This document shows positions 38,499 through 46,857 of a DNA stretch of 64,000 nucleotides, piece by piece; positions within the stretch are counted from its first letter, which is position 1, and every line of letters begins with the position of its first letter. Both the position numbers and the translations under genes were made by a program. This DNA is from Minisyncoccia bacterium (GTDB lineage Bacteria > Patescibacteriota > Minisyncoccia > Phycocordibacterales > UBA9973), in contig CBFHKH010000001.1 in the NCBI GenBank assembly GCA_965656375.1, positions 132,691-196,690 on the forward strand, written 5' to 3'. The notes beneath the pieces were generated by a model that saw only the letters and a program-made list of their open reading frames with translations, did no database searches and was not told the DNA's origin.

Positions 38499-40298
38499 AT
38501 GGATATACAAAAAATTAGAAATTTCTCCATTATCGCCCATATTGATCACGGCAAATCGACCCTTGCTGATCGAATGCTTGAAGTGACGGGTACGATTGAG
38601 AAGCGCAAGATGAAGGATCAAGTTCTCGACTCTATGGAGCTCGAGCGTGAACGTGGTATCACTATCAAAATGCAGCCAGTACGTATGGAACATGTGGTAG
38701 ATGGAGAGAATTATATTCTCAATCTCATTGATACGCCAGGACACATCGATTTCTCATATGAAGTTTCTCGAGCGCTTAAAGCAGTTGAAGGATCAATACT
38801 CCTTGTTGATTCTACTCAGGGAGTCCAGGCGCAAACATTAACCACACTTGGCATGGCACGCGAATCTGGCCTCGTCATTATTCCAGTACTTTCAAAAGTA
38901 GATTCACCGCTTGCGCGTGTTGATGAAGTAAAGATGGAACTCGCAGTTCTTCTTGATATTGATCCGGATACAATACTCGAAGTGTCAGGAAAGACCGGGG
39001 AAGGGGTAGAAGTACTCCTTACAGAACTGGTAAAAAGAATTCCACCTCCAAATGTAAAAGTTGAGACTGCGTCAGGACGGGCACTTGTGTTTGATTTTAA
39101 ATATGACAACCATAGAGGGGTTATCGTCTACGTACGAGTAATAGAGGGAAGCTTTAAGAAAGGAGAATCACTTCTCTTTGCAATATCAGATGAAAAATTT
39201 ATCGCGCTTGAGGTAGGAACTTTTTCTCCTGAAGAGTTTCCTCGTGAAAAGATCAGCGGCGGAGAGATTGGCTACATTGTCACTGGTATCAAAAAGCCCG
39301 GGATTGCATCTGTGGGTGATACGATTACGTATGCAAAACGTCCGCTCGAAGCTCTCCCTGGATACATGAATCCATCACCAGTCGTGTGGGCATCTGTATA
39401 CCCGGAGTCTGCAGATGATTTTCCAGAGCTCAAAGCTGCACTTTCAAAGCTTAAGCTTTCTGACTCTTCGTTCTCGTATGAAGAAGAGACTTCCGGCAGT
39501 TTAGGGAGAGGATTCCGTTGTGGATTCCTCGGAATGCTTCATCTTGAAATCGTCACAGAGCGACTCAATCGTGAATTTGATCTTGAGCTTGTTGTGACGA
39601 TGCCGTCTATCACATACAAAGTCATACTTCGAAATGGAAAGGAGCAGATGATCTATTCTCCGCATCTTTTCCCTGATGATGGGAATGTGCAGAAAATATT
39701 TGAACCATGGGTAGATGTACGGATCATCGTGCCTTCGAAGTACGTAAGTGTGCTCATGCCATTCTTTTATGACCATGAAGGGGAAGTAAAAATGACGGAA
39801 AACTTTGGAGATAATCGTTCCTCAATTGATCTTGAAATGCCACTCCGAGAACTCATGCGAGATTTCTTTGATGAACTCAAAAGTGTTACATCTGGATATG
39901 CGTCGATTTCCTACGAAATAGGTGACTATCGAGAGGCGGATGTAGTTCGCCTTGATATTCTCGTTGCAGATGAACCTATGGTTGCATTCACGAGAGTGGT
40001 ATCTCGCCGCAGAGTAGAGGAGGAAGCAAAAAGTCAGGTGGAACGACTCAAGAAAGTTATTCCTCGTCAGCAATTCGCATTCAAGATTCAAGGTAAAGCT
40101 TTGGGTCGCATCATCTCATCGGAATCTGTAAGTGCCTTTATGAAAGACGTCACGCAGCATATGTATGGAGGGGATATTACACGCAAGATGAAACTTCGAG
40201 AAAAGCAGAAGAAGGGTAAGAAGAAAATGGCTGGTAGAGGAAAAATAAACATCTCTCATGATGTCTTCTTGAAAATGATGCGTAGTGGAGATAACTAG
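38499..40298 (+). CDS. lepA: Elongation factor 4 (LepA)
   Basis: IRNFSIIAHIDHGKSTLADR G-domain. LepA C-terminal domain. The start is taken at MDIQK and the upstream overlapping ATG is rejected. Confidence 0.9.
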   Translation: MDIQKIRNFSIIAHIDHGKSTLADRMLEVTGTIEKRKMKDQVLDSMELERERGITIKMQPVRMEHVVDGENYILNLIDTPGHIDFSYEVSRALKAVEGSILLVDSTQGVQAQTLTTLGMARESGLVIIPVLSKVDSPLARVDEVKMELAVLLDIDPDTILEVSGKTGEGVEVLLTELVKRIPPPNVKVETASGRALVFDFKYDNHRGVIVYVRVIEGSFKKGESLLFAISDEKFIALEVGTFSPEEFPREKISGGEIGYIVTGIKKPGIASVGDTITYAKRPLEALPGYMNPSPVVWASVYPESADDFPELKAALSKLKLSDSSFSYEEETSGSLGRGFRCGFLGMLHLEIVTERLNREFDLELVVTMPSITYKVILRNGKEQMIYSPHLFPDDGNVQKIFEPWVDVRIIVPSKYVSVLMPFFYDHEGEVKMTENFGDNRSSIDLEMPLRELMRDFFDELKSVTSGYASISYEIGDYREADVVRLDILVADEPMVAFTRVVSRRRVEEEAKSQVERLKKVIPRQQFAFKIQGKALGRIISSESVSAFMKDVTQHMYGGDITRKMKLREKQKKGKKKMAGRGKINISHDVFLKMMRSGDN

Positions 40299-40430
40299 CT
40301 TTTTATTGAAAAATAGGCAAATAGAGAAGAACCATGCTTATCATGACGATGACAGATATTACCGTAAAAATAAGTTTCATTCTCTTTTGACCTTTCTGGC
40401 TGAAAATCATGATATAATTATACATATTTT

Positions 40431-40811
40431 ATGGCGCAATTCAATAAGAAAAATACATACAAATTTTGGCACTCTCCACTTGCACTTATCGTGCTTTTTT
40501 GTATTTTTGTACTGTTTGCCTATAATATGGTCGGGCTTATGAAGAAAGAGCGGGAAACCAGCAGAAATAAAGCTTCAGAGCTTAACAAGATCGAAGATCT
40601 TCGTGCTCGTGAAGCTCTACTCAATCGGGATATCGATAGACTTAATACAGACGAGGGCATAGAAGCGTCAATCAGAGATAAATTCCAAGTCGTAAAGCCT
40701 GGGGAGAAGGAAGTCTTAATAGTACAAGAAGAGAGTAAAACAGAGACACTCGAAAAAGAGTCTGACCATAGTTTCTGGGGATACATAAAACGTTTATTCA
40801 AGCGGAATTAG
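40431..40811 (+). CDS. Septum-formation initiator-like protein (FtsB/DivIC family)
   Basis: An N-terminal TM followed by a coiled coil (LNKIEDLRAREALLNRDIDRLNTDEG). Confidence 0.45.
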   Translation: MAQFNKKNTYKFWHSPLALIVLFCIFVLFAYNMVGLMKKERETSRNKASELNKIEDLRAREALLNRDIDRLNTDEGIEASIRDKFQVVKPGEKEVLIVQEESKTETLEKESDHSFWGYIKRLFKRN

Positions 40812-40872
40812 TTTAGTGGTAGAACTGGTGCTTCCCAAGCATCGGGCAGGGGTTCGATTCTCCTATTCCGCA
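40802..40872 (+). tRNA. tRNA-Gly (anticodon CCC), no encoded CCA
   Basis: GCGGAAT acceptor pairs with ATTCCGC. Anticodon loop TTCCCAA. T-loop TTCGATT. It overlaps the last codons of the upstream ORF. Confidence 0.8.
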
Positions 40873-40915
40873 CAGATTTGCATATTAGGCAAAATATCCT
40901 TCCTTAATGGAATAG

Positions 40916-41422
40916 TTATTCTATTGTATATGTAAACACTTTAACTGGAATTCCTTTATCCTGGGCTTTTGTTATTGTATCTTGCGTTCCTTCTGTCTGG
41001 TTAATATGGAAAGCGATAAGTTCATCTGAGTTATCAATAATCGTTGTTATTCTTGCGAAATAAGCTTCTTTATTTAAAATGATGTCTTTTCCTTCTATAA
41101 GTGAATTTGGGTTTCTATTTTTTAAATCTTCTAGTTGGTTAATAAGCCTTGTTGCTTGTTCAAAAGTAATAACACCTTCGTTTGCACGATTGAGATAGTG
41201 AGTTCGATATACATCTAGAGTAGACGGAATATATATTTTAATTTTACTAGCATCAGGGTTATGCTTGAGGGCCTCATCTAGAGCGATTGAATCAACACCT
41301 AATGCACCCCCTGAAACAATCCCGTTTCCATCAATAAAAATATTCTTTAGAGCAACTCTAATATCTTTATCTACTTCTAAGTTAGTTTTCCGCCAAGCAC
41401 CTGCAATTGCGATCCATTTCAT
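40916..41422 (-). CDS. SLOG/DprA-like Rossmann-fold protein (putative nucleotide-binding)
   Basis: 168 aa. GIVSGGALGVDSIALDEAL resembles the DprA/SLOG glycine-rich nucleotide-binding motif. Confidence 0.35.
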   Translation of the reverse strand: MKWIAIAGAWRKTNLEVDKDIRVALKNIFIDGNGIVSGGALGVDSIALDEALKHNPDASKIKIYIPSTLDVYRTHYLNRANEGVITFEQATRLINQLEDLKNRNPNSLIEGKDIILNKEAYFARITTIIDNSDELIAFHINQTEGTQDTITKAQDKGIPVKVFTYTIE

Positions 41423-41494
41423 TCTTCAATTATATCAGAAAATGTTATTTACCCTCCCTTCCAAAGAATACCAATTCGGTGATAGAATGGACTA

Positions 41495-41974
41495 ATGAAT
41501 AATTATGCTTTCATCGATAGTCAAAATGTCTATCTCTCAATAAAATCATTAGGATGGAGTATTCACTGGAAGCGATTTCGAGTCTATTTAAAGGAACATT
41601 ATAGAGTGACTAAAGCTTTTTTATTTCTTGGATATGTAGAAGGGAACAATGCTATGTATTCTGAACTTCAAGAAGCTGGGTTCATTTGTATCTTTAAACC
41701 GGTGCTGACATATAAGGATGGAACAGTAAAAGGCAATGTTGATGCAGAGCTTGTACTCCATACGATGGTTCAGTATGCTAATTTTGAAAAAGCTGTCATT
41801 ATTACCGGTGATGGAGACTTTTATTGCTTAGTTCAATATCTGTTAGAGAACAATAAACTACAGACAGTATTAGTTCCAAACAAGAATAAATACTCTGCTT
41901 TGCTCAAGCGCTTTGCGAAGAAGCATATTGCATTTATGAATGATTTGGAGATGAAGATTGGTCAGGCTAAATAA
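41495..41974 (+). CDS. NYN-domain (PIN-like) ribonuclease family protein
   Basis: AFIDSQNVYLS...ITGDGDF is the NYN/LabA pattern. Confidence 0.65.
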   Translation: MNNYAFIDSQNVYLSIKSLGWSIHWKRFRVYLKEHYRVTKAFLFLGYVEGNNAMYSELQEAGFICIFKPVLTYKDGTVKGNVDAELVLHTMVQYANFEKAVIITGDGDFYCLVQYLLENNKLQTVLVPNKNKYSALLKRFAKKHIAFMNDLEMKIGQAK

Positions 41975-42233
41975 AAAGGACCCCTGCAGGACGAACCTGC
42001 AAGGGGACTTTTCGTGGTGATATAATCATTATAGCTGATCTGGATTACGTGTCAAGGAGCGCTGTATAAGATGTTATTTGCAGGTCATTTATGCTGCTAT
42101 CTTCAATATGTTTCTCATTATAAGTTCTAACTTCGTTGATTAGGCTGTACATATGTCAAGTATTGCAATATATATGGGTATGATATAATGAGGGTCAATT
42201 ATTAAATATCACCGCGTTTGCGGTTTACACAAT

Positions 42234-42473
42234 ATGAGTACAGTCACTATTTATAGCACTCCATCATGTCATTTTTGTCACATGGCAAAAGAGTTTTTTA
42301 AAGAAAAGAATGTCGAATTCGTTGATTTTGACGTAGCAGGGGATCAGGAAAAGCGCAAAGAAATGATCGCAAAAAGCGGTCAGATGGGTGTACCAGTCAT
42401 CGCCATTGGAAATACTATTGTTGTTGGTTTTAATAAGCCAAAGATTGTAGAGCTCCTCGGTATTACTGAGTAG
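42234..42473 (+). CDS. Glutaredoxin-like protein (NrdH/Grx family)
   Basis: 79 aa. CHFC active site in a thioredoxin-fold context (IYSTPSCHFCHMAKEFF). Confidence 0.7.
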   Translation: MSTVTIYSTPSCHFCHMAKEFFKEKNVEFVDFDVAGDQEKRKEMIAKSGQMGVPVIAIGNTIVVGFNKPKIVELLGITE

Positions 42474-42500
42474 CATTTACTACCATTTTAACGTATGATA

Positions 42501-42524
42501 AAAACACCCGTACGGGTGTTTTTA
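42501..42524 (+). terminator. Rho-independent terminator after the glutaredoxin gene
   Basis: aaaacacccgta/cgggtgtttt is a perfect hairpin followed by T-run. Confidence 0.55.
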
Positions 42525-42540
42525 TGTAAACTCAATATTT

Positions 42541-42612
42541 GTCCTTGTAGTTCAACGGATAGAACAGTCCCGTCCTAAGGGATAGATGTAGGTTCAATTC
42601 CTGCCAAGGACA
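42541..42612 (+). tRNA. tRNA-Arg (anticodon CCU), no encoded CCA
   Basis: GTCCTTG pairs with CAAGGAC in the acceptor stem. Anticodon loop GTCCTAA. T-arm GTAGG-TTCAATT-CCTGC. Confidence 0.8.
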
Positions 42613-42682
42613 CAGCTATGTACTCGCGGTCGGAGTGAAGGCACACTTTTATTTTTGACTGAAATATGCTAAAGTTTGGTTC

Positions 42683-42976
42683 ATGGATGAAGTAACCAAA
42701 CAGCTTCTGAAAGAAACATTAGAAGTCTCAAAAGCCAATAATGTAATGCTTGTAAAGCTTGCTCGATCGCAAAAGCGAGCAAATATCTATCGATTGGTAT
42801 ATTGGGGAGTCATTGTTTTCTTTTCATTTGGAATATACTATCTCATCCAACCGTTTATGAACAATTTAATGAGTCTTTATACAGGAGGAGCATCGGATGG
42901 TAGTAGTTTCACTGATTTGATGAAGAACTTCAGCAACAAAGAACAGTTAAATAATTTGATAGATACAATCAAATAA
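42683..42976 (+). CDS. Small membrane protein of unknown function
   Basis: 97 aa with one TM. Confidence 0.3.
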   Translation: MDEVTKQLLKETLEVSKANNVMLVKLARSQKRANIYRLVYWGVIVFFSFGIYYLIQPFMNNLMSLYTGGASDGSSFTDLMKNFSNKEQLNNLIDTIK

Positions 42977-42982
42977 TCCTAT

Positions 42983-42997
42983 GCCGAGATAGCTCAG
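42983..42997 (+). repeat. 15-nt direct repeat identical to the 5' end of tRNA-Phe (GCCGAGATAGCTCAG). It forms the left boundary of a GIY-YIG insertion unit and is followed by two GC-rich hairpins.
   Basis: It matches 43306-43320 exactly. Downstream are the hairpins ccccgac-N9-gtcgggg and agccgac-N6-gtcggct. Confidence 0.6.
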
Positions 42998-43048
42998 CCC
43001 CGACGTGAGTACAGTCGGGGAGCCGACAGAATCGTCGGCTTTGGCGCC

Positions 43049-43315
43049 ATGAAACCAGTTGTTTATATTTTAAAATCAAATTTGGGCAAGTATTATATAG
43101 GTAGTACTTATAATTTAGAAAGAAGGCTTGCTCAGCATGCTGAGGGACATACCCACTCAACAAAAAGAATGGGGTATATGGAACTAGTTTTTTCTCAAGA
43201 ATACAAGAGCCTGAAAGATGCTAGAAATGTAGAGTTTCATATAAAAAAACTCAAGAGAAAAGACTTTGTTGAAAAAATCGTGAAAGAAGGTTATATTAGG
43301 ATTACGCCGAGATAG
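43049..43315 (+). CDS. GIY-YIG nuclease family protein (YhbQ/UPF0213-like)
   Basis: KPVVYILKSNLGKYYIGSTYNLERRLAQH has GIY-YIG and the R...H catalytic core. The last codons and stop are supplied by the tRNA-Phe 5' sequence. Confidence 0.75.
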   Translation: MKPVVYILKSNLGKYYIGSTYNLERRLAQHAEGHTHSTKRMGYMELVFSQEYKSLKDARNVEFHIKKLKRKDFVEKIVKEGYIRITPR

Positions 43316-43378
43316 CTCAGTTGGTAGAGCGCTCCCCTGAAGAGGGATAGGTCACCAGTTCGACTCTGGTTCTCGGCA
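43306..43378 (+). tRNA. tRNA-Phe (anticodon GAA), no encoded CCA
   Basis: GCCGAGA pairs with TCTCGGC in the acceptor stem. D-loop AGCTCAGTTGGTAGAGC. Anticodon loop CTGAAGA. T-loop TTCGACT. Confidence 0.8.
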
Positions 43379-43383
43379 CAATA

Positions 43384-43411
43384 GAAAAATCCCCACAGTG
43401 GGGATTTTTCT
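43384..43411. terminator. Bidirectional terminator between tRNA-Phe and the hsp20 gene
   Basis: gaaaaatcccca-cagt-ggggatttttc. Confidence 0.55.
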
Positions 43412-43425
43412 ATTGTGCTTTAATG

Positions 43426-43932
43426 TTATATCGATTTCACTTTCAATTTTGTCTCTTTGTTTTTGTTTATCTTCGGAAGCTTTATTATAAGGAGCCCATG
43501 CTTCTCTATTGCCTCAGCTTCTTCGGGATCAACTTCTTCAGGAAGAGAGATAGTTCGTGCAAACGAACCCCAGTAGAGCTCTTGCACAAAATAATTATCG
43601 TGGTTTATAGATTGATTCTCTTCGCGCTTGCCACGGATGGTGATCAAGTCGCGAGTGATCGTGATCGCGAGATTTTCCGGGAGTACGCCTGCGACCATCG
43701 TTTGAACGATAATATCTGTTGGAGTCTGATAGAGGTCTACAGTCAGTTGGGCTTCCTCCTCTTCTTCCCATTTGGATTCTTTCTTCTCATTATTTAAACC
43801 ACCCATATCCTTGCTTACCGGGAGGGTTATCTTTTTTGCTGTGTCTGTCGCTTGGAGAGGGGAACTAACTTCTTCTTCGTCTTCAAAGCGCATGCTTCCT
43901 GTGAGACGCTCGAGAAATGATTTTTTTGCCAT
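43426..43932 (-). CDS. Small heat-shock protein (Hsp20/alpha-crystallin family)
   Basis: Alpha-crystallin domain with the A.G-like motif ...ENLAITITRDLITIRGKREE... and an I.I-type C-terminal tail. Confidence 0.75.
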   Translation of the reverse strand: MAKKSFLERLTGSMRFEDEEEVSSPLQATDTAKKITLPVSKDMGGLNNEKKESKWEEEEEAQLTVDLYQTPTDIIVQTMVAGVLPENLAITITRDLITIRGKREENQSINHDNYFVQELYWGSFARTISLPEEVDPEEAEAIEKHGLLIIKLPKINKNKETKLKVKSI

Positions 43933-43940
43933 AAATAATA

Positions 43941-44663
43941 TTAGCGTTCAACAGGAATACTGATAGTAGCATTTCCCATACGCTTTAACTTTTCAAAAAT
44001 AAGTATACTAATAATCGCGACGACCCATAACAATCCGAATACGCTCAAGAAGTTTTCACCGCTTCCTTTCATTATAAAAAAATTAAACACGCTGTGCAAT
44101 ACTATCGCACAGAGGAGTCCACACAGCATATATATACCTCTATATTGACGGATATAAAAAGAAAGACCAAGCGCGCTTCCGATGAGTCCGCTCGCAATCG
44201 CGTGAAGAAGCGTTGATCCCAGGAATCGAAGGTTGCCGGTAAGGAGGCCAACAACGGTGCCGTCGACAGCGAGTGGGCGAAGGAGGTAGAGGATATTTTC
44301 GAATGCTGCAAAGCCGAGCGCTACAGCGATGAAATACATCGGATAATCTATCGGTTCATCAACAACTGTTGTTCCGCTTATGATAATGAGAACACCAAGG
44401 AGTTTCAAAATCTCCTCGATAGTTGCCCATGCTACTATCTGAGTCGTATTATCAGGTAGGTAATTGAGAGAATACTTTTCCATCCATATCGCGATAAGTA
44501 CTATGATTCCGCCAAGAATGAATGAAAGTACGATGAGTCCACGCGGCTCTTTGTGGCCTTCGTCTTCTTCACGAAGCCAAAACCATAACCAAAATACTGC
44601 TGGCAATGCACCGCCGAGAACTGCAAATAACAATGTCTTTGGATCTTTAAGCAGTTCGATCAT
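43941..44663 (-). CDS. PrsW-family intramembrane metalloprotease-like protein
   Basis: TIEEILKLLG is the EExxK motif, AAFENILY is the FxxxE motif and LLHAIASG is the HxxxS motif. Multi-TM. Confidence 0.5.
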   Translation of the reverse strand: MIELLKDPKTLLFAVLGGALPAVFWLWFWLREEDEGHKEPRGLIVLSFILGGIIVLIAIWMEKYSLNYLPDNTTQIVAWATIEEILKLLGVLIIISGTTVVDEPIDYPMYFIAVALGFAAFENILYLLRPLAVDGTVVGLLTGNLRFLGSTLLHAIASGLIGSALGLSFYIRQYRGIYMLCGLLCAIVLHSVFNFFIMKGSGENFLSVFGLLWVVAIISILIFEKLKRMGNATISIPVER

Positions 44664-46857
44664 TGGAATGCCATTTTGTTACCATAAGTAAATTCTTGTC
44701 TTCGACTGGCCTGTCTGCGCAGGTGGACAAGAGTGACCAGATCTCTTCAGTTACGAACGGCATGAATGGATGGAGTGTGATCACTATCTTTGTGAGCGTT
44801 CCGAGTAAGAATTGTGCACGAGAATTTCTATCTTCATTGTCTGCTCCTTGGAGAATTGGTTTACTCTCTTCGATGATTACATCAGCAAATCGTGCCCAGG
44901 TGTACTGGTAAATCTTGTCTCCTGCGAGATAGAATTTATACTCTTCCATTTCTTTTGTAATCGTTTTTAGAATCTCATCTCTTTCATGGATAAGTTCCAT
45001 ATCTTTATTCGTGTATTTTTCGAACTGTGGATCGTAGGTAAGATTTTCTGTGTATGAGAGTACAAAGCGAGTAATATTCCAGAGTTTATTCGCATAGTTT
45101 TTGTATGCTTTTATTTTATCCTCACTCATTTTACTATCATTACCGGGTCCAGTTCCTATAATGAGCGACATACGCACTGCGTCGGCTCCATATTTTGCTA
45201 TGACATCAAGTGGATCGATGATATTACCAAGTGATTTTGACATCTTTCGTCCTTGTGCGTCACGGACAAGGCCGTGGAGATATACAGTCTTGAATGGGAT
45301 TTCACCCAAAATATATTGAGACATGAGAATCATACGTGCCACCCAGAAGAACAGGATGTCGTATCCAGTTTCGAGGATTGTTGTCGGATGATAGGTTTCT
45401 AGGTCTTTTGTTTTCTCTGGCCATCCAAGTGTTGAGAATGTCCACAGTCCCGATGAGAACCAAGTATCGAGTGTGTCTTCATCTTGAACCCATCCTTCTT
45501 CATCTGGCTCTTCAACTCCGCAGTATACTTCGGTGCCCTTATACCACACTGGAATTCGATGCCCGTACCAGATCTGGCGAGAGATACACCAGTCACGCAG
45601 ATTATCTACCCAGTTGAAATATACTCTCTCGAAGTGATCAGGAAGTATATCAATATCTTTATTGCGAATTGGTTCAAGCATTAACTCCTTGAGCGTTTTG
45701 TTATTTCGATCAGGAATCGGTTTGTTCACATTGATGAACCACTGATTCATAATTTGTGGTTCAATAACTGCTTCAGTACGTTCTGCTGTGGCTACGTTGT
45801 GAGTATAGTCTTCAATTTTCTCTACCAAGCCTTTTGATTCGAGTTTTTCGATGATCTTTGCTCTTGCGTCTTTGATCTTCATACCTCCAAATTCGCCAGC
45901 GATAGGGAGGAGCTTGCCGTACTTATCAATGATCTGCTCTTTGTCGAGATTGTGACGCTGTGCGATTTCAAAATCGACAGTACTATGCCATGGAGTGATA
46001 GTCATGACACCTGTACCGAATTCCATATCAATACTTTCATCTTTGATGATCGTTGCTTCTATTGGTCCGTTGATCCACTCGACGGTTATCTTGTCTCCAT
46101 GAGTGTATGTGCTGTATCTGGCATCATCAGGATGCATGACCACGTATTTATCTCCAAATTTTGTTTCTGGTCGTGCAGTACCGATGGTGAACGGTCCATA
46201 CTTTAGATAGTAGAACTTTGTCTTTTCTTCTTTGTATACCATCTCGTCGTCAGAGATTACTGTCTGGCCTTTTGGATCCCAGTTTACGATGCGGTGGCCA
46301 CGATAGATGAGTCCGTCATCGTACATTTTCTTAAATGCTGTGCGCACTGCAAAGTTACGTTTCTCGTCGAGCGTGAACGCTTCTCGTGACCAGTCGATAG
46401 ACGCACCCATTTTCTTCACTTGGGAGACGATTGTGTCATGGCTGTCTTGTGCAAATGTCTCTACTCGCTTGAGAAATTCTTCGCGACCAAGGTCACTTTT
46501 TCTCTTACCTTCTTCTTTCTCGATCAGCTTCTCAACTTTTGATTGCGTCGCGATTGCTGCGTGATCTGTTCCAGGAAGCCAGAGAGTTCGCTTTCCTTGC
46601 ATACGAGCGAAGCGGACCATGATATCTTCGATAACGAGCATAGCTGCATGGCCGATATGGAGTGTTCCCGTGACGTTTGGGGGAGGTAATACTATAGAGA
46701 ATGGTTCACCATCTGCTTTCGTTACTCCTTTCTCTATACAGATATCAGGATTAAAAAAACCACTCTCTTCCCAGAGTTTGTATATGCGGTCTTCAGTTTC
46801 ACCCGGATTATATGGAGAGAGGAGTTTTGGGTTTATATCAGGCATATCTTCTTTCAT
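44647..46857 (-). CDS. valS: Valyl-tRNA synthetase (short form lacking the C-terminal coiled coil)
   Basis: PPPNVTGTLHIGHA HIGH motif, KMSKSLGN, and editing-domain motifs. 736 aa. Confidence 0.9.
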   Translation of the reverse strand: MKEDMPDINPKLLSPYNPGETEDRIYKLWEESGFFNPDICIEKGVTKADGEPFSIVLPPPNVTGTLHIGHAAMLVIEDIMVRFARMQGKRTLWLPGTDHAAIATQSKVEKLIEKEEGKRKSDLGREEFLKRVETFAQDSHDTIVSQVKKMGASIDWSREAFTLDEKRNFAVRTAFKKMYDDGLIYRGHRIVNWDPKGQTVISDDEMVYKEEKTKFYYLKYGPFTIGTARPETKFGDKYVVMHPDDARYSTYTHGDKITVEWINGPIEATIIKDESIDMEFGTGVMTITPWHSTVDFEIAQRHNLDKEQIIDKYGKLLPIAGEFGGMKIKDARAKIIEKLESKGLVEKIEDYTHNVATAERTEAVIEPQIMNQWFINVNKPIPDRNNKTLKELMLEPIRNKDIDILPDHFERVYFNWVDNLRDWCISRQIWYGHRIPVWYKGTEVYCGVEEPDEEGWVQDEDTLDTWFSSGLWTFSTLGWPEKTKDLETYHPTTILETGYDILFFWVARMILMSQYILGEIPFKTVYLHGLVRDAQGRKMSKSLGNIIDPLDVIAKYGADAVRMSLIIGTGPGNDSKMSEDKIKAYKNYANKLWNITRFVLSYTENLTYDPQFEKYTNKDMELIHERDEILKTITKEMEEYKFYLAGDKIYQYTWARFADVIIEESKPILQGADNEDRNSRAQFLLGTLTKIVITLHPFMPFVTEEIWSLLSTCADRPVEDKNLLMVTKWHSNDRTA

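Follow-up and report, generated by a model that had tools for sequence, protein, structure and literature searches.

Why does a nuclease gene lie between an intact tRNA gene and a copy of that tRNA's own 5′ end? The question is raised by a 64-kb stretch of a Minisyncoccia bacterium contig (CBFHKH010000001.1, assembly GCA_965656375.1; hereafter the window), in which a GIY-YIG nuclease gene that precedes tRNA-Phe is bracketed by a short repeat of the tRNA sequence. A sequence-only reading of this locus had proposed a homing-type cassette flanked by a 15-nt duplication. We consider it reasonably probable that this locus holds a copy of a mobile cassette, old and lineage-wide in the Patescibacteria, that inserts into tRNA genes and rebuilds them, and our best reading is that this cassette is mostly inherited vertically and often lost. 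In a full unit, the 5′ arm of the resident tRNA would be left upstream, and a GC-rich double hairpin of dyad symmetry would sit precisely where a tRNA loop is broken (the D-loop at 15/16 in the window). A few more tRNA bases and an 88-amino-acid (aa) nuclease gene of the Slx1/UPF0213 type would follow, and the 3′ end of this gene would be fused to a complete tRNA gene that would keep the cell supplied with the tRNA.

Anatomy of the tRNA-Phe locus

The 15-mer GCCGAGATAGCTCAG occurs exactly twice in the window, at positions 42983-42997 and 43306-43320, and a search with two mismatches allowed still returns only those two sites, where the chance expectation is 0.02. The repeat grows to 17/18 nt when the preceding TA is counted. 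The second copy forms positions 1-15 of an intact tRNA-Phe(GAA) gene on the forward strand (43306-43379, with the end at 43378 or 43379) that was identified by ARAGORN and by Rfam RF00005 at 68.6 bits. CCA is not encoded in this gene, nor in any of the three tRNA genes of the window. The upstream copy (42983-42997, forward strand) repeats 43306-43320 exactly and corresponds to the acceptor 5′ strand and the 5′ half of the D-arm.

Directly behind the upstream copy lie two GC-rich hairpins, recognized from sequence and folding, whose presence between the repeats the sequence-only reading had correctly reported. Hairpin 1 (hp1; CCCCGAC-GTGAGTACA-GTCGGGG) occupies 42998-43020 and hairpin 2 (hp2; AGCCGAC-AGAATC-GTCGGCT) occupies 43021-43040, both on the forward strand. 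Together they fold with -31.9 kcal/mol (z -3.4), and the local GC content is 0.49 compared to about 0.35 in the surrounding sequence. Past hp2, the bases TTGG (43041-43044, forward strand) correspond to tRNA positions 16-19, resuming after the insertion at 15/16. Four bases are uninformative alone; at this place relatives read TTGGTAGAG, CTGGTTAG or TGGATAG, in agreement with the local tRNA up to about position 23. Because tRNA sequence resumes past hp2, the upstream element is an interrupted tRNA 5′ arm and no bare 15-mer. On sequence grounds, we conclude that the upstream copy is a pseudo-tRNA 5′ arm (positions 1-19) whose D-loop is split at 15/16 by a dyad-symmetric double hairpin. The 15-nt duplication first proposed is thus confirmed as a repeat with two copies only, while its true extent is that of a tRNA 5′ arm reaching about 5-13 nt beyond the hairpin site. 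A simple 15-nt target-site duplication is ruled out, since the tRNA sequence that resumes after the hairpins carries the peculiarities of the local tRNA and since a variant in the anticodon loop, described below, duplicates positions 1-41.

The spacer CGCC (43045-43048, forward strand), with no obvious Shine-Dalgarno sequence, fills the 4 nt ahead of the start codon; relatives have a variable, AT-rich spacer of 5-30 nt here. The nuclease gene itself (43049-43315, forward strand) encodes 88 aa, matches PF01541 with an E value of 1.7e-14, and is the sole open reading frame (ORF) of a unit that measures 323 nt as a whole. Its last 10 nt lie within tRNA-Phe, such that the third base of the Thr codon, the Pro and Arg codons and the TAG stop are tRNA positions 1-10, with the stop at U8A9G10. 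An earlier statement that the tRNA copy encodes the terminal ITPR and stop is correct for these bases, although the Ile codon lies outside the tRNA. An ordinary ORF of the window, encoding a 126-aa FtsB/DivIC-like protein (40431-40811, forward strand), overlaps tRNA-Gly(CCC) (40802-40873) by 10 nt as well, with its TAG again at U8-A9-G10. Since an ordinary ORF shows the identical overlap, we regard it as a habit of a compact genome and not as evidence for insertion.

Recurrence at tRNA genes of Patescibacteria

The protein has hundreds of relatives of 86-88 aa, all from assemblies of Patescibacteria (candidate phyla radiation, CPR), and a profile search of 1.84 billion cluster representatives yielded 779 clusters (50% identity) at E ≤ 1e-10. 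We surveyed 80 Patescibacteria genomic loci bearing the ORF, which are labeled L below. A tRNA gene on the same strand starts within 50 nt of the ORF end in 68 of the 80 loci, and the stop codon falls inside the tRNA in 28 of these 68. Three further loci precede tRNA-Asn genes that ARAGORN missed, each of which carries a group I intron at 35/36, and in the leftover loci either the contig breaks off or tRNA remnants separate the ORF from the tRNA. Every evaluable ORF among the 80 loci directly precedes a tRNA gene. The adjoining tRNAs comprise 20 isoacceptors for 11 amino acids, to which paralogues with 33-43% identity add Ser, Gly and Glu, giving at least 14 kinds, and single genomes carry several cassette copies at different tRNAs.

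The upstream arm recurs with the gene. At about 55 of the 80 surveyed loci, the sequence 45-120 nt before the ATG repeats the local tRNA's 5′ arm, split by a CCGAC...GTCGG hairpin pair, which lies between positions 15 and 16 in class A (including the window) and between 10 and 11 in class B. The hairpins are followed by tRNA sequence to about position 23, a short AT-rich spacer and the ATG. The pseudo acceptor strand (positions 1-7) is identical to that of the local tRNA (7/7) in 30 of 45 scorable loci and matches at 6/7 in six more, and the post-hairpin bases mirror peculiarities of the local D-loop at His, Lys, Ile and Arg loci. The sequence-only reading had suggested a search of other tRNA loci for the repeat-hairpin-nuclease unit, and the unit is present at many of them.

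It could be argued that the repeat arose by chance beside an ordinary gene, for which the small size of the repeat is the only argument. Against this stand two copies where 0.02 are expected, tRNA-specific upstream copies in dozens of independent loci at different tRNAs, and the existence of empty sites, which are presented below. The case in which the sequence-only reading was to be abandoned, a chance repeat without any empty sites, is thereby excluded, and we give coincidence next to no credence.

Several observations on individual loci accompany the survey. At L051 (3310-3900), L073 (475-840) and L078 (3270-3577), the GIY-YIG ORF is followed by a tRNA-Asn(GTT) gene that is split after ...CTGT (35/36). 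The group I introns score 84.7 and 80.3 bits with RF00028, and the intron of L051 carries an HNH-like ORF. The tRNA-Asn locus is thus shared by two different selfish elements, the cassette and a group I intron, in a gene that standard tRNA finders miss. In the window, a gene for an NYN-domain protein, a predicted RNase, is located at 41495-41974, 1.1 kb upstream of the cassette, and a homologue with 55% identity lies directly downstream of the GIY-YIG/tRNA-Arg cassette of L045 (3455-3928), which may be coincidence. Many database members (P0121-P0269) have N-terminal extensions of 20-60 aa, for total lengths of 112-147 aa. These are probably not real domains and result from gene callers reading through the stop-free, GC-rich hairpin region.

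The double hairpin and its variant forms

The two hairpins form a dyad-symmetric unit that is unique in the window. Across the family, hp1 follows the consensus NN-CCGACG-loop-GTCGG-NN, with G as the first loop base in 42 of 46 pairs, and hp2 follows NN-CCGAC-loop-CGTCGG-NN, with C as the last loop base in 38 of 46. The outer stem pairs covary, being complementary in 125 of 144 hairpins with at least 8 pair types, and the loops are variable and often hold nested copies of the same motif. Cassettes associated with tRNA-Arg carry the hairpin pair in the reverse-complement arrangement, so both orientations are known. A scan of 0.84 Mb gave 72 strict hairpin-pair sites: 51 upstream of the ORF, 17 within tRNA remnants next to cassettes and about 4 elsewhere. 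In approximately 400 kb of unbiased sequence, only 2 stand-alone pairs were present. The hairpin pair belongs to the cassette system and is a conserved element in its own right.

Other identities for the hairpins were considered and rejected. They lack the T-run of an intrinsic terminator of the upstream gene, and the real terminators of this genome look different. Among known RNA families, the hairpin region gave only noise below threshold (rpfG, E 0.65). The group I intron model (Intron_gpI, RF00028), which recovers the genuine introns of L073 and L051, has no match at E ≤ 1 in 40000-45000, and the tRNA that follows the cassette in the window has no interruption.

Variant forms relate the hairpins to the duplicated arm. 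Fifteen loci are long forms, in which a second hairpin pair follows the intact tRNA on its 3′ side and leads into the 3′ part of a second tRNA copy, with the downstream remnant arranged as positions 11-15, hairpins, and positions 16-74. In the long forms of L002 and L004, the two hairpin copies are near-identical, including the nested loop. The upstream and downstream remnants of long forms jointly rebuild one hairpin-split tRNA gene, and the ORF and the intact tRNA appear to have been placed into such a gene. We infer that the short form in the window arose from a long form by deletion between the repeated 3′ parts. In mirror forms (L033 and L038), an intact tRNA comes first, then the ORF and then a hairpin-split tRNA, and in L038 the hairpin element sits inside a full-length tRNA without duplication. 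Two solos lack the ORF (L027 and L077) and consist of a hairpin-split arm 6-20 nt upstream of tRNA-Arg(CCT). Remnant hairpins are also present at tRNA positions 35/36 and 30/31.

Paralogues with 33-43% identity keep this layout with unrelated hairpins. A single long CCCGCCCG hairpin occupies the D-loop in L157 (Phe), a different GC-rich cluster is found at 14/15 in L057b and L063b (Ser), and L134 (Glu) has a duplicated arm of positions 1-41 whose anticodon loop holds a double hairpin at 35/36. The duplicated arm ends 5-13 nt past the hairpin site in every case, whichever loop is involved, and the hairpin type tracks the nuclease clade. Because the arm always ends at this distance, we suggest that the break point in the loop, the hairpins and the extent of the duplication are products of one process.

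These forms also bear on an alternative in which the double hairpin is the true mobile element, either a bacterial counterpart of the double-hairpin elements (DHEs) of mitochondria or a palindromic miniature inverted-repeat transposable element that prefers tRNA-like stem-loops, and the GIY-YIG gene is a mobilizer in trans or only a neighbor. Hairpins would then survive only in non-essential tRNA copies, and the duplications would have a separate origin, such as repair events that follow the lethal insertion of a hairpin. Such an element would account for the boundary of inverted 6-mers (CCGACG...CGTCGG), which resembles terminal inverted repeats, and for the dyad symmetry, the two orientations, the nesting of hairpins in their own loops, the use of several tRNA positions (10/11, 15/16, 30/31 and 35/36), the presence in a full-length, unduplicated tRNA in L038, and the occurrence without an ORF in the L027 and L077 solos and at 4 non-tRNA sites. 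It does not account for the finding that 68 of 72 strict sites are in cassettes or their tRNA remnants, with the 2 stand-alone pairs in about 400 kb showing no independent proliferation, nor for an arm end fixed 5-13 nt past the hairpin site, which ties duplication and hairpin to a single process, nor for a hairpin type that follows the nuclease clade. We regard an autonomous hairpin element as improbable, and a cassette of nuclease, hairpins and tRNA remains our preferred reading.

In addition, copies of tRNA 3′ ends (about positions 56-74) lie 150-250 nt downstream of the intact tRNA in L002 (3637-3654), L004 (3515-3526), L007, L013 and L031, and also in L052, L055, L056, L057 and L076; in L082 such a copy is located just after tRNA-Phe. 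The distance from tRNA-Phe to hsp20 differs by up to 2 kb in several relatives. The downstream copies could be att-type repeats of other small elements or displaced 3′ ends of resident tRNAs.

Empty sites and history of the tRNA-Phe site

The gene order at the window locus is glutaredoxin, tRNA-Arg(CCT), orf97, cassette, tRNA-Phe, hsp20 and a membrane protein, and it is common to at least 16 cassette-bearing genomes. To obtain an unbiased sample of the site, loci were anchored on the flanking glutaredoxin gene regardless of the nuclease, yielding 39 loci with orf97 followed by tRNA-Phe. We found that 37 of the 39 are empty and 2 are occupied (~5%). At empty sites such as L089, an AT-rich spacer runs straight into tRNA-Phe, and the first 48 nt of the tRNA-Phe in the window are the same as at the L089 empty site. 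The sequence-only reading had proposed comparing tRNA-Phe loci of related genomes for empty sites, and these include the closest relatives of the window by flank proteins. In a tree of three flanking proteins, occupied and empty loci are interleaved, with the window and L001 in a clade with nine empty relatives.

The site has been visited by more than one cassette lineage, as class A (15/16), class B (10/11) and L157-type cassettes all occur at the same syntenic position in different lineages. Four loci (L097, L104, L121 and L142) are empty, yet they have a conserved, hairpin-less pseudo-arm, GC[CT][GC]AGGTAGCTGTTTTGGTAGGTATaCGcAA, 10-60 nt upstream of tRNA-Phe, with no ORF behind it and shared across different host clades. 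This pseudo-arm may be a scar, possibly of an L157-type cassette, and it is conserved enough that it may also be a separate thing. A tRNA-Phe allele (GCCGAGG...GGGAG ATGTC ACCAG...CCTCGGC) is present in L082, L104, L118, L121, L142 and L157, where it differs at five or more linked positions from the alleles of each locus's closest relatives and yet recurs across host clades, which suggests that tRNA genes themselves are exchanged horizontally at this site. The shared allele accompanies a cassette or a scar, and L082 has the displaced 3′ remnant of another allele downstream.

The history that fits best is ancient residence with mostly vertical descent, frequent precise loss via the direct repeats, and rare re-invasion or target switching. 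The window insertion is not recent, because cassette and flanks have diverged equally and the ORF and pseudo-arm are conserved. The idea of a small mobile insertion at the tRNA-Phe 5′ region is therefore retained insofar as an insertion directed at the tRNA 5′ part has left its footprint at the locus, with the amendment that the event is old. A search of the closest pairs for recent horizontal transfer turned up none; the 100%-identical stretch that L002 and L004 share lies in genomes that are 91-94% identical overall.

The nuclease

The match of the 88-aa protein to PF01541 covers residues 3-71 and scores 54.3 bits compared to a gathering cut-off of 22.6 bits. Residues Y6, Y16, G18, R26, H30 and E62 are invariant in 38 sequences, among them the two Tyr of the GIY and YIG motifs and the catalytic Arg, His and Glu. 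An AlphaFold2 model (pLDDT 90) has the elements E4-10, E15-20, H23-32, H36-39, E44-51 and H55-68, in the beta-beta-alpha-alpha-beta-alpha order of the superfamily fold. In a phmmer search of the Protein Data Bank, the best match was 1zg2 (2.2e-6) followed by 1ywl (3.9e-3), both UPF0213 proteins. Foldseek ranked 1zg2, 1ywl, the Slx1 structure 6seh (root-mean-square deviation 2.3 Å, 31% identity) and 4xm5 ahead of UvrC, with I-TevI in 15th place at a TM score of 0.41. Both 1zg2 and 1ywl have been assigned to the bacterial Slx1 family, as minimal domains without the C-terminal Asn of the UvrC and homing lineages (Dunin-Horkawicz et al., PMC1564403). A conserved Asn of this kind is likewise lacking here; the relatives are 86-88 aa long and have no Asn among the invariant or near-invariant columns after E62.

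The protein consists of the catalytic domain and one basic helix, with no DNA-binding domain. The TIGR01453 model of group I intron endonucleases reaches 22 bits, against a cut-off of 56, and covers the N-terminal 36 residues only, and a PHROG homing endonuclease match (E 0.002) is also confined to the N-terminal part. Sequence and model together indicate that the nuclease is of the minimal Slx1/UPF0213 lineage and not of the I-TevI type, and is predicted to be structure-specific, without a domain that reads sequence. The YhbQ-type label that the gene first received is accordingly right, with the UPF0213 proteins 1zg2 and 1ywl as its nearest solved relatives, and the homing-type label is dropped on account of the lineage, the missing DNA-binding domain and conserved C-terminal Asn, the TIGR01453 score, and the low structural rank of I-TevI. 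An exact look-up of the window's own protein found no database record, and PADLOC provided no membership in a defense system beyond E values of ~0.006-0.008.

Constraint and the host-gene alternative

The ORF has a ratio of nonsynonymous to synonymous substitution rates (dN/dS) of 0.05-0.39, and of 0.146 between the window and L001 at a dS of ~1.1. In the same comparison, the arm is identical at 15 of 15 positions and all stem bases are kept, while the hairpin loops, the spacer and the outer flank have diverged. This pattern indicates that arm and stems are no passive footprint and are maintained, whether through selection or through gene conversion with the neighboring tRNA. Retention of the pseudo acceptor strand for pairing with the tRNA 3′ strand found no support, since mismatches in L011, L043 and L061 break that pairing.

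Constraint of this kind would also be expected of a domesticated host gene, that is, a UPF0213 nuclease of tRNA or RNA metabolism encoded in tRNA leaders, with the pseudo-arm as a cis-regulatory or processing structure and the patchy distribution reflecting dispensability and repeated loss. Suggested roles for the pseudo-arm are an mRNA stabilizer, a translational brake and an RNase P decoy. The purifying selection on the ORF, the conservation of arm and hairpin stems beyond neutral expectation, and the match between cassette and flank divergence are all consistent with such a gene. The end of hp2, only 8 nt before the AUG, could occlude the ribosome. UPF0213 genes elsewhere are linked or fused to tRNA/rRNA methyltransferases, including a fusion with TrmH (PMC1564403). 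In Radiobacillus kanasensis (L162, NZ_CP088021.1, 11696-11971), the UPF0213 homologue overlaps the end of the gene for the tRNA1(Val) m6A37 methyltransferase and is followed by rsmI, an operon context that hints at an RNA-related role for the housekeeping members.

A host gene is difficult to reconcile with the distribution. Only ~5% of syntenic tRNA-Phe sites are occupied, and one site holds three different cassette lineages. More than 20 different tRNAs have a paralogue beside them, in each case with an arm that newly matches the local tRNA, which requires repeated insertion, and the remnants on both sides of the tRNA, nested hairpins, solos and scars are signatures of insertion and decay. 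Two UPF0213 controls from outside the CPR (Aeromonas and Radiobacillus) have no adjacent tRNA gene and give no sign that tRNA adjacency is a general UPF0213 trait. We consider a domesticated host gene unlikely, though it is the alternative that we take most seriously.

Expression and proposed mechanism

An intrinsic terminator, formed by a 21-bp perfect inverted repeat and a T-run (43376-43418, forward strand), has its 5′ arm starting inside the tRNA-Phe 3′ end (GCAC...) and probably closes an ORF-tRNA transcription unit. Sub-threshold Rfam matches to ohsC and mir-583 at the same position merely reflect this hairpin. An internal promoter for the tRNA was rejected; the one candidate is a 10/12 match at 43269-43297, and the total of 5 matches compared to 3.9 expected is at chance level. 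Coupled expression of ORF and tRNA is plausible because the sole terminator lies after the tRNA and promoter-like matches do not exceed chance. The nuclease would be transcribed from the tRNA's own upstream promoter, as part of a long 5′ leader, and RNase P cleavage at the tRNA 5′ end would free the tRNA, remove the stop codon from the mRNA and keep nuclease expression low. Processing at tRNA-Gly would likewise strip the stop codon from the mRNA of the 126-aa ORF.

For a mobile cassette, we infer the following route. The substrate of the nuclease would probably be DNA that the double hairpin of a tRNA arm causes to branch or to fold into hairpins, or else the conserved D-arm of empty genes. 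Cleavage would start break repair or gene conversion, in which tRNA sequence would be the only homology shared between genomes. Recombination between the direct repeats of the tRNA arm would then lead to precise loss and regenerate clean empty sites. Precedents for parts of this route are phage T4 SegB, free-standing mitochondrial homing endonuclease genes and mitochondrial DHEs, all of which are compared with the cassette below.

Several points weigh against a mobile cassette. Since the tRNA that the unit restores has the sequence of the presumed target, immunity of the occupied allele is not obvious; the upstream arm is broken by the hairpins exactly at the junction, and a fully intact tRNA remains alongside. 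Phage T4 SegB (see below) shows that such immunity is not a strict requirement for homing. In L038, the ORF-linked tRNA has itself been struck by a hairpin element. A switch of tRNA type by simple homologous recombination would give a mismatched acceptor stem, and we have formulated no single-step mechanism that covers all forms. No recent transfer was detected: cassette and flanks have reached the same divergence in every close pair (L002/L004, L052/L070 and window/L001), the nearest cassette pairs are always of the same tRNA type, and neighbor-joining trees of the 88-aa protein are weakly resolved. Strong purifying selection under vertical descent is atypical of a fixed, purely selfish homing gene, and the protein belongs to a 'housekeeping' Slx1/UPF0213 lineage without a recognizable specificity domain. 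Finally, no cassette copies were found among the viral contigs, phage and plasmid records searched; IMG/VR and INPHARED returned no relatives, and PLSDB returned only two distant UPF0213 matches.

A further idea, which we hold to be very improbable, is that the leader serves as a guide. The leader, as RNA or as extruded single-stranded DNA, would pair through tRNA positions 1-15 and 16-23 with the complementary strand of an empty tRNA gene, and the two hairpins would protrude as a three-way junction at 15/16, where the Slx1-type nuclease would cut the branch. The unit would then be a nucleic-acid-guided, structure-specific nuclease system of about 320 nt whose target arms are rewritten at each new tRNA, with a logic like that of the omega-RNA/TnpB and IS110 bridge-RNA systems and a different, far smaller enzyme. 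Compatible with a guide are the match of both arms to the local tRNA and their conservation beyond neutrality, conserved stems that track the nuclease clade, arms that end just past the hairpin site in any loop, and a protein without a specificity domain.

If the mobile-cassette reading is correct, streamlined Patescibacteria would carry a widespread family of elements that invade tRNA genes, and the enigmatic bacterial Slx1/UPF0213 (YhbQ) nucleases would gain their first role in a mobile element. The cassette would represent an intron-free way to invade an essential single-copy gene, in which the gene is split, a replacement 5′ part is carried along and tRNA homology arms are kept. It would also provide a bacterial counterpart to mitochondrial DHEs. 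How those elements spread has been a question since the 1990s, and it becomes accessible to in vitro tests where a hairpin unit comes with its cognate 88-aa nuclease. On the practical side, programs that call tRNAs or genes in CPR genomes will be led astray by hairpin-split pseudo-tRNAs and by ORFs that overlap tRNAs, and the apparent travel of tRNA alleles with the cassette is relevant wherever tRNA loci serve as phylogenetic or synteny markers.

Comparison with known systems

A literature search found no prior description of an architecture of nuclease, hairpins and tRNA, and a query combining YhbQ/UPF0213 with GIY-YIG was empty. The cassette does share parts with several known systems. Homing endonucleases show presence/absence polymorphism at a defined site, which is also seen here (37 empty and 2 occupied loci). 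They combine a catalytic with a DNA-binding domain, however, and the cassette protein has only the former. SegB of phage T4 cuts a conserved tRNA motif, so that many tRNA genes are cleavable, including some of its own genome (PMC2330249). Both SegB and the cassette nuclease are encoded by free-standing GIY-YIG genes among or next to tRNA genes, and inheritance of segB co-converts flanking tRNA sequence, a feature to which the cassette can be likened. In contrast, SegB is a phage-borne protein of ~220 aa from an I-TevI-like lineage, with a C-terminal NUMOD3 DNA-binding part, a target in the T-psi-C arm, and neither a duplicated tRNA arm nor a hairpin element. The cassette protein has 88 aa, is of the Slx1/UPF0213 type, is encoded on CPR chromosomes and is linked with the D-arm or with the anticodon loop, where it is predicted to cleave.

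Islands and prophages that integrate into tRNA genes by tyrosine integrases resemble the cassette in the choice of tRNA genes, the direct repeat of tRNA sequence and the restoration of the tRNA by sequence of the element. They carry an integrase, extend over kilobases and repeat sequence from the 3′ side of the tRNA (anticodon loop, T-loop or 3′ end), whereas the cassette has 323 nt and duplicates the 5′ arm. With the GIY-YIG gene as the only ORF and no recombinase, an integrase-type island is rejected. Patescibacteria tRNA introns are described as group I introns of the anticodon loop, and GIY-YIG genes are unmentioned in that description (PMC13011429). Like the cassette they are selfish insertions in tRNA genes of the same phylum, they share the 35/36 position with the L134 paralogue and the L009 remnant, and the two can occupy the same tRNA-Asn locus (L051 and L073). 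Group I introns restore the tRNA by splicing, while the cassette would do so by duplication at the DNA level and has no ribozyme in Rfam matches.

Slx1/UPF0213 proteins (YhbQ, BH0048 as 1zg2 and EF2693 as 1ywl) are the best matches in sequence and fold, being minimal stand-alone domains that lack the conserved C-terminal Asn. The substrate of Slx1 is branched DNA, a kind of structure that DNA with hairpins would offer. The housekeeping UPF0213 genes differ in being single-copy, with no tRNA neighbor in two controls and no known membership in a mobile element or association with a hairpin unit.

In architecture, the hairpins resemble the DHEs, which in the mitochondrial DNA of chytrids and fission yeasts are thought to be mobile (Paquin & Lang; summarized in PMC10085805). 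Both are short, GC-rich units that fold as two neighboring hairpins in AT-rich genomes; in both, the stems are conserved, the loops vary and there are signs of mobility. DHEs are organellar and scattered over intergenic regions and rRNA genes, whereas the cassette hairpins are locked to one gene class. Free-standing homing endonuclease genes (HEGs) of mitochondria accompany partial duplications of their target genes, such as the C-terminal parts of atp6 and cob (PMC6279837). Here too an endonuclease gene lies beside a duplicated piece of the invaded gene, which stays functional, but the mitochondrial duplications concern 3′ ends of protein genes and implicate no Slx1-type nuclease, whereas the cassette duplicates tRNA 5′ arms. 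The Allomyces atp6/mobile ORF case is reportedly another of these systems in which an HEG is joined to a duplication. Set beside all of them, the cassette family is apparently undescribed and combines features of free-standing tRNA-targeting GIY-YIG genes, double-hairpin elements and tRNA-restoring insertions on an Slx1/UPF0213 lineage.

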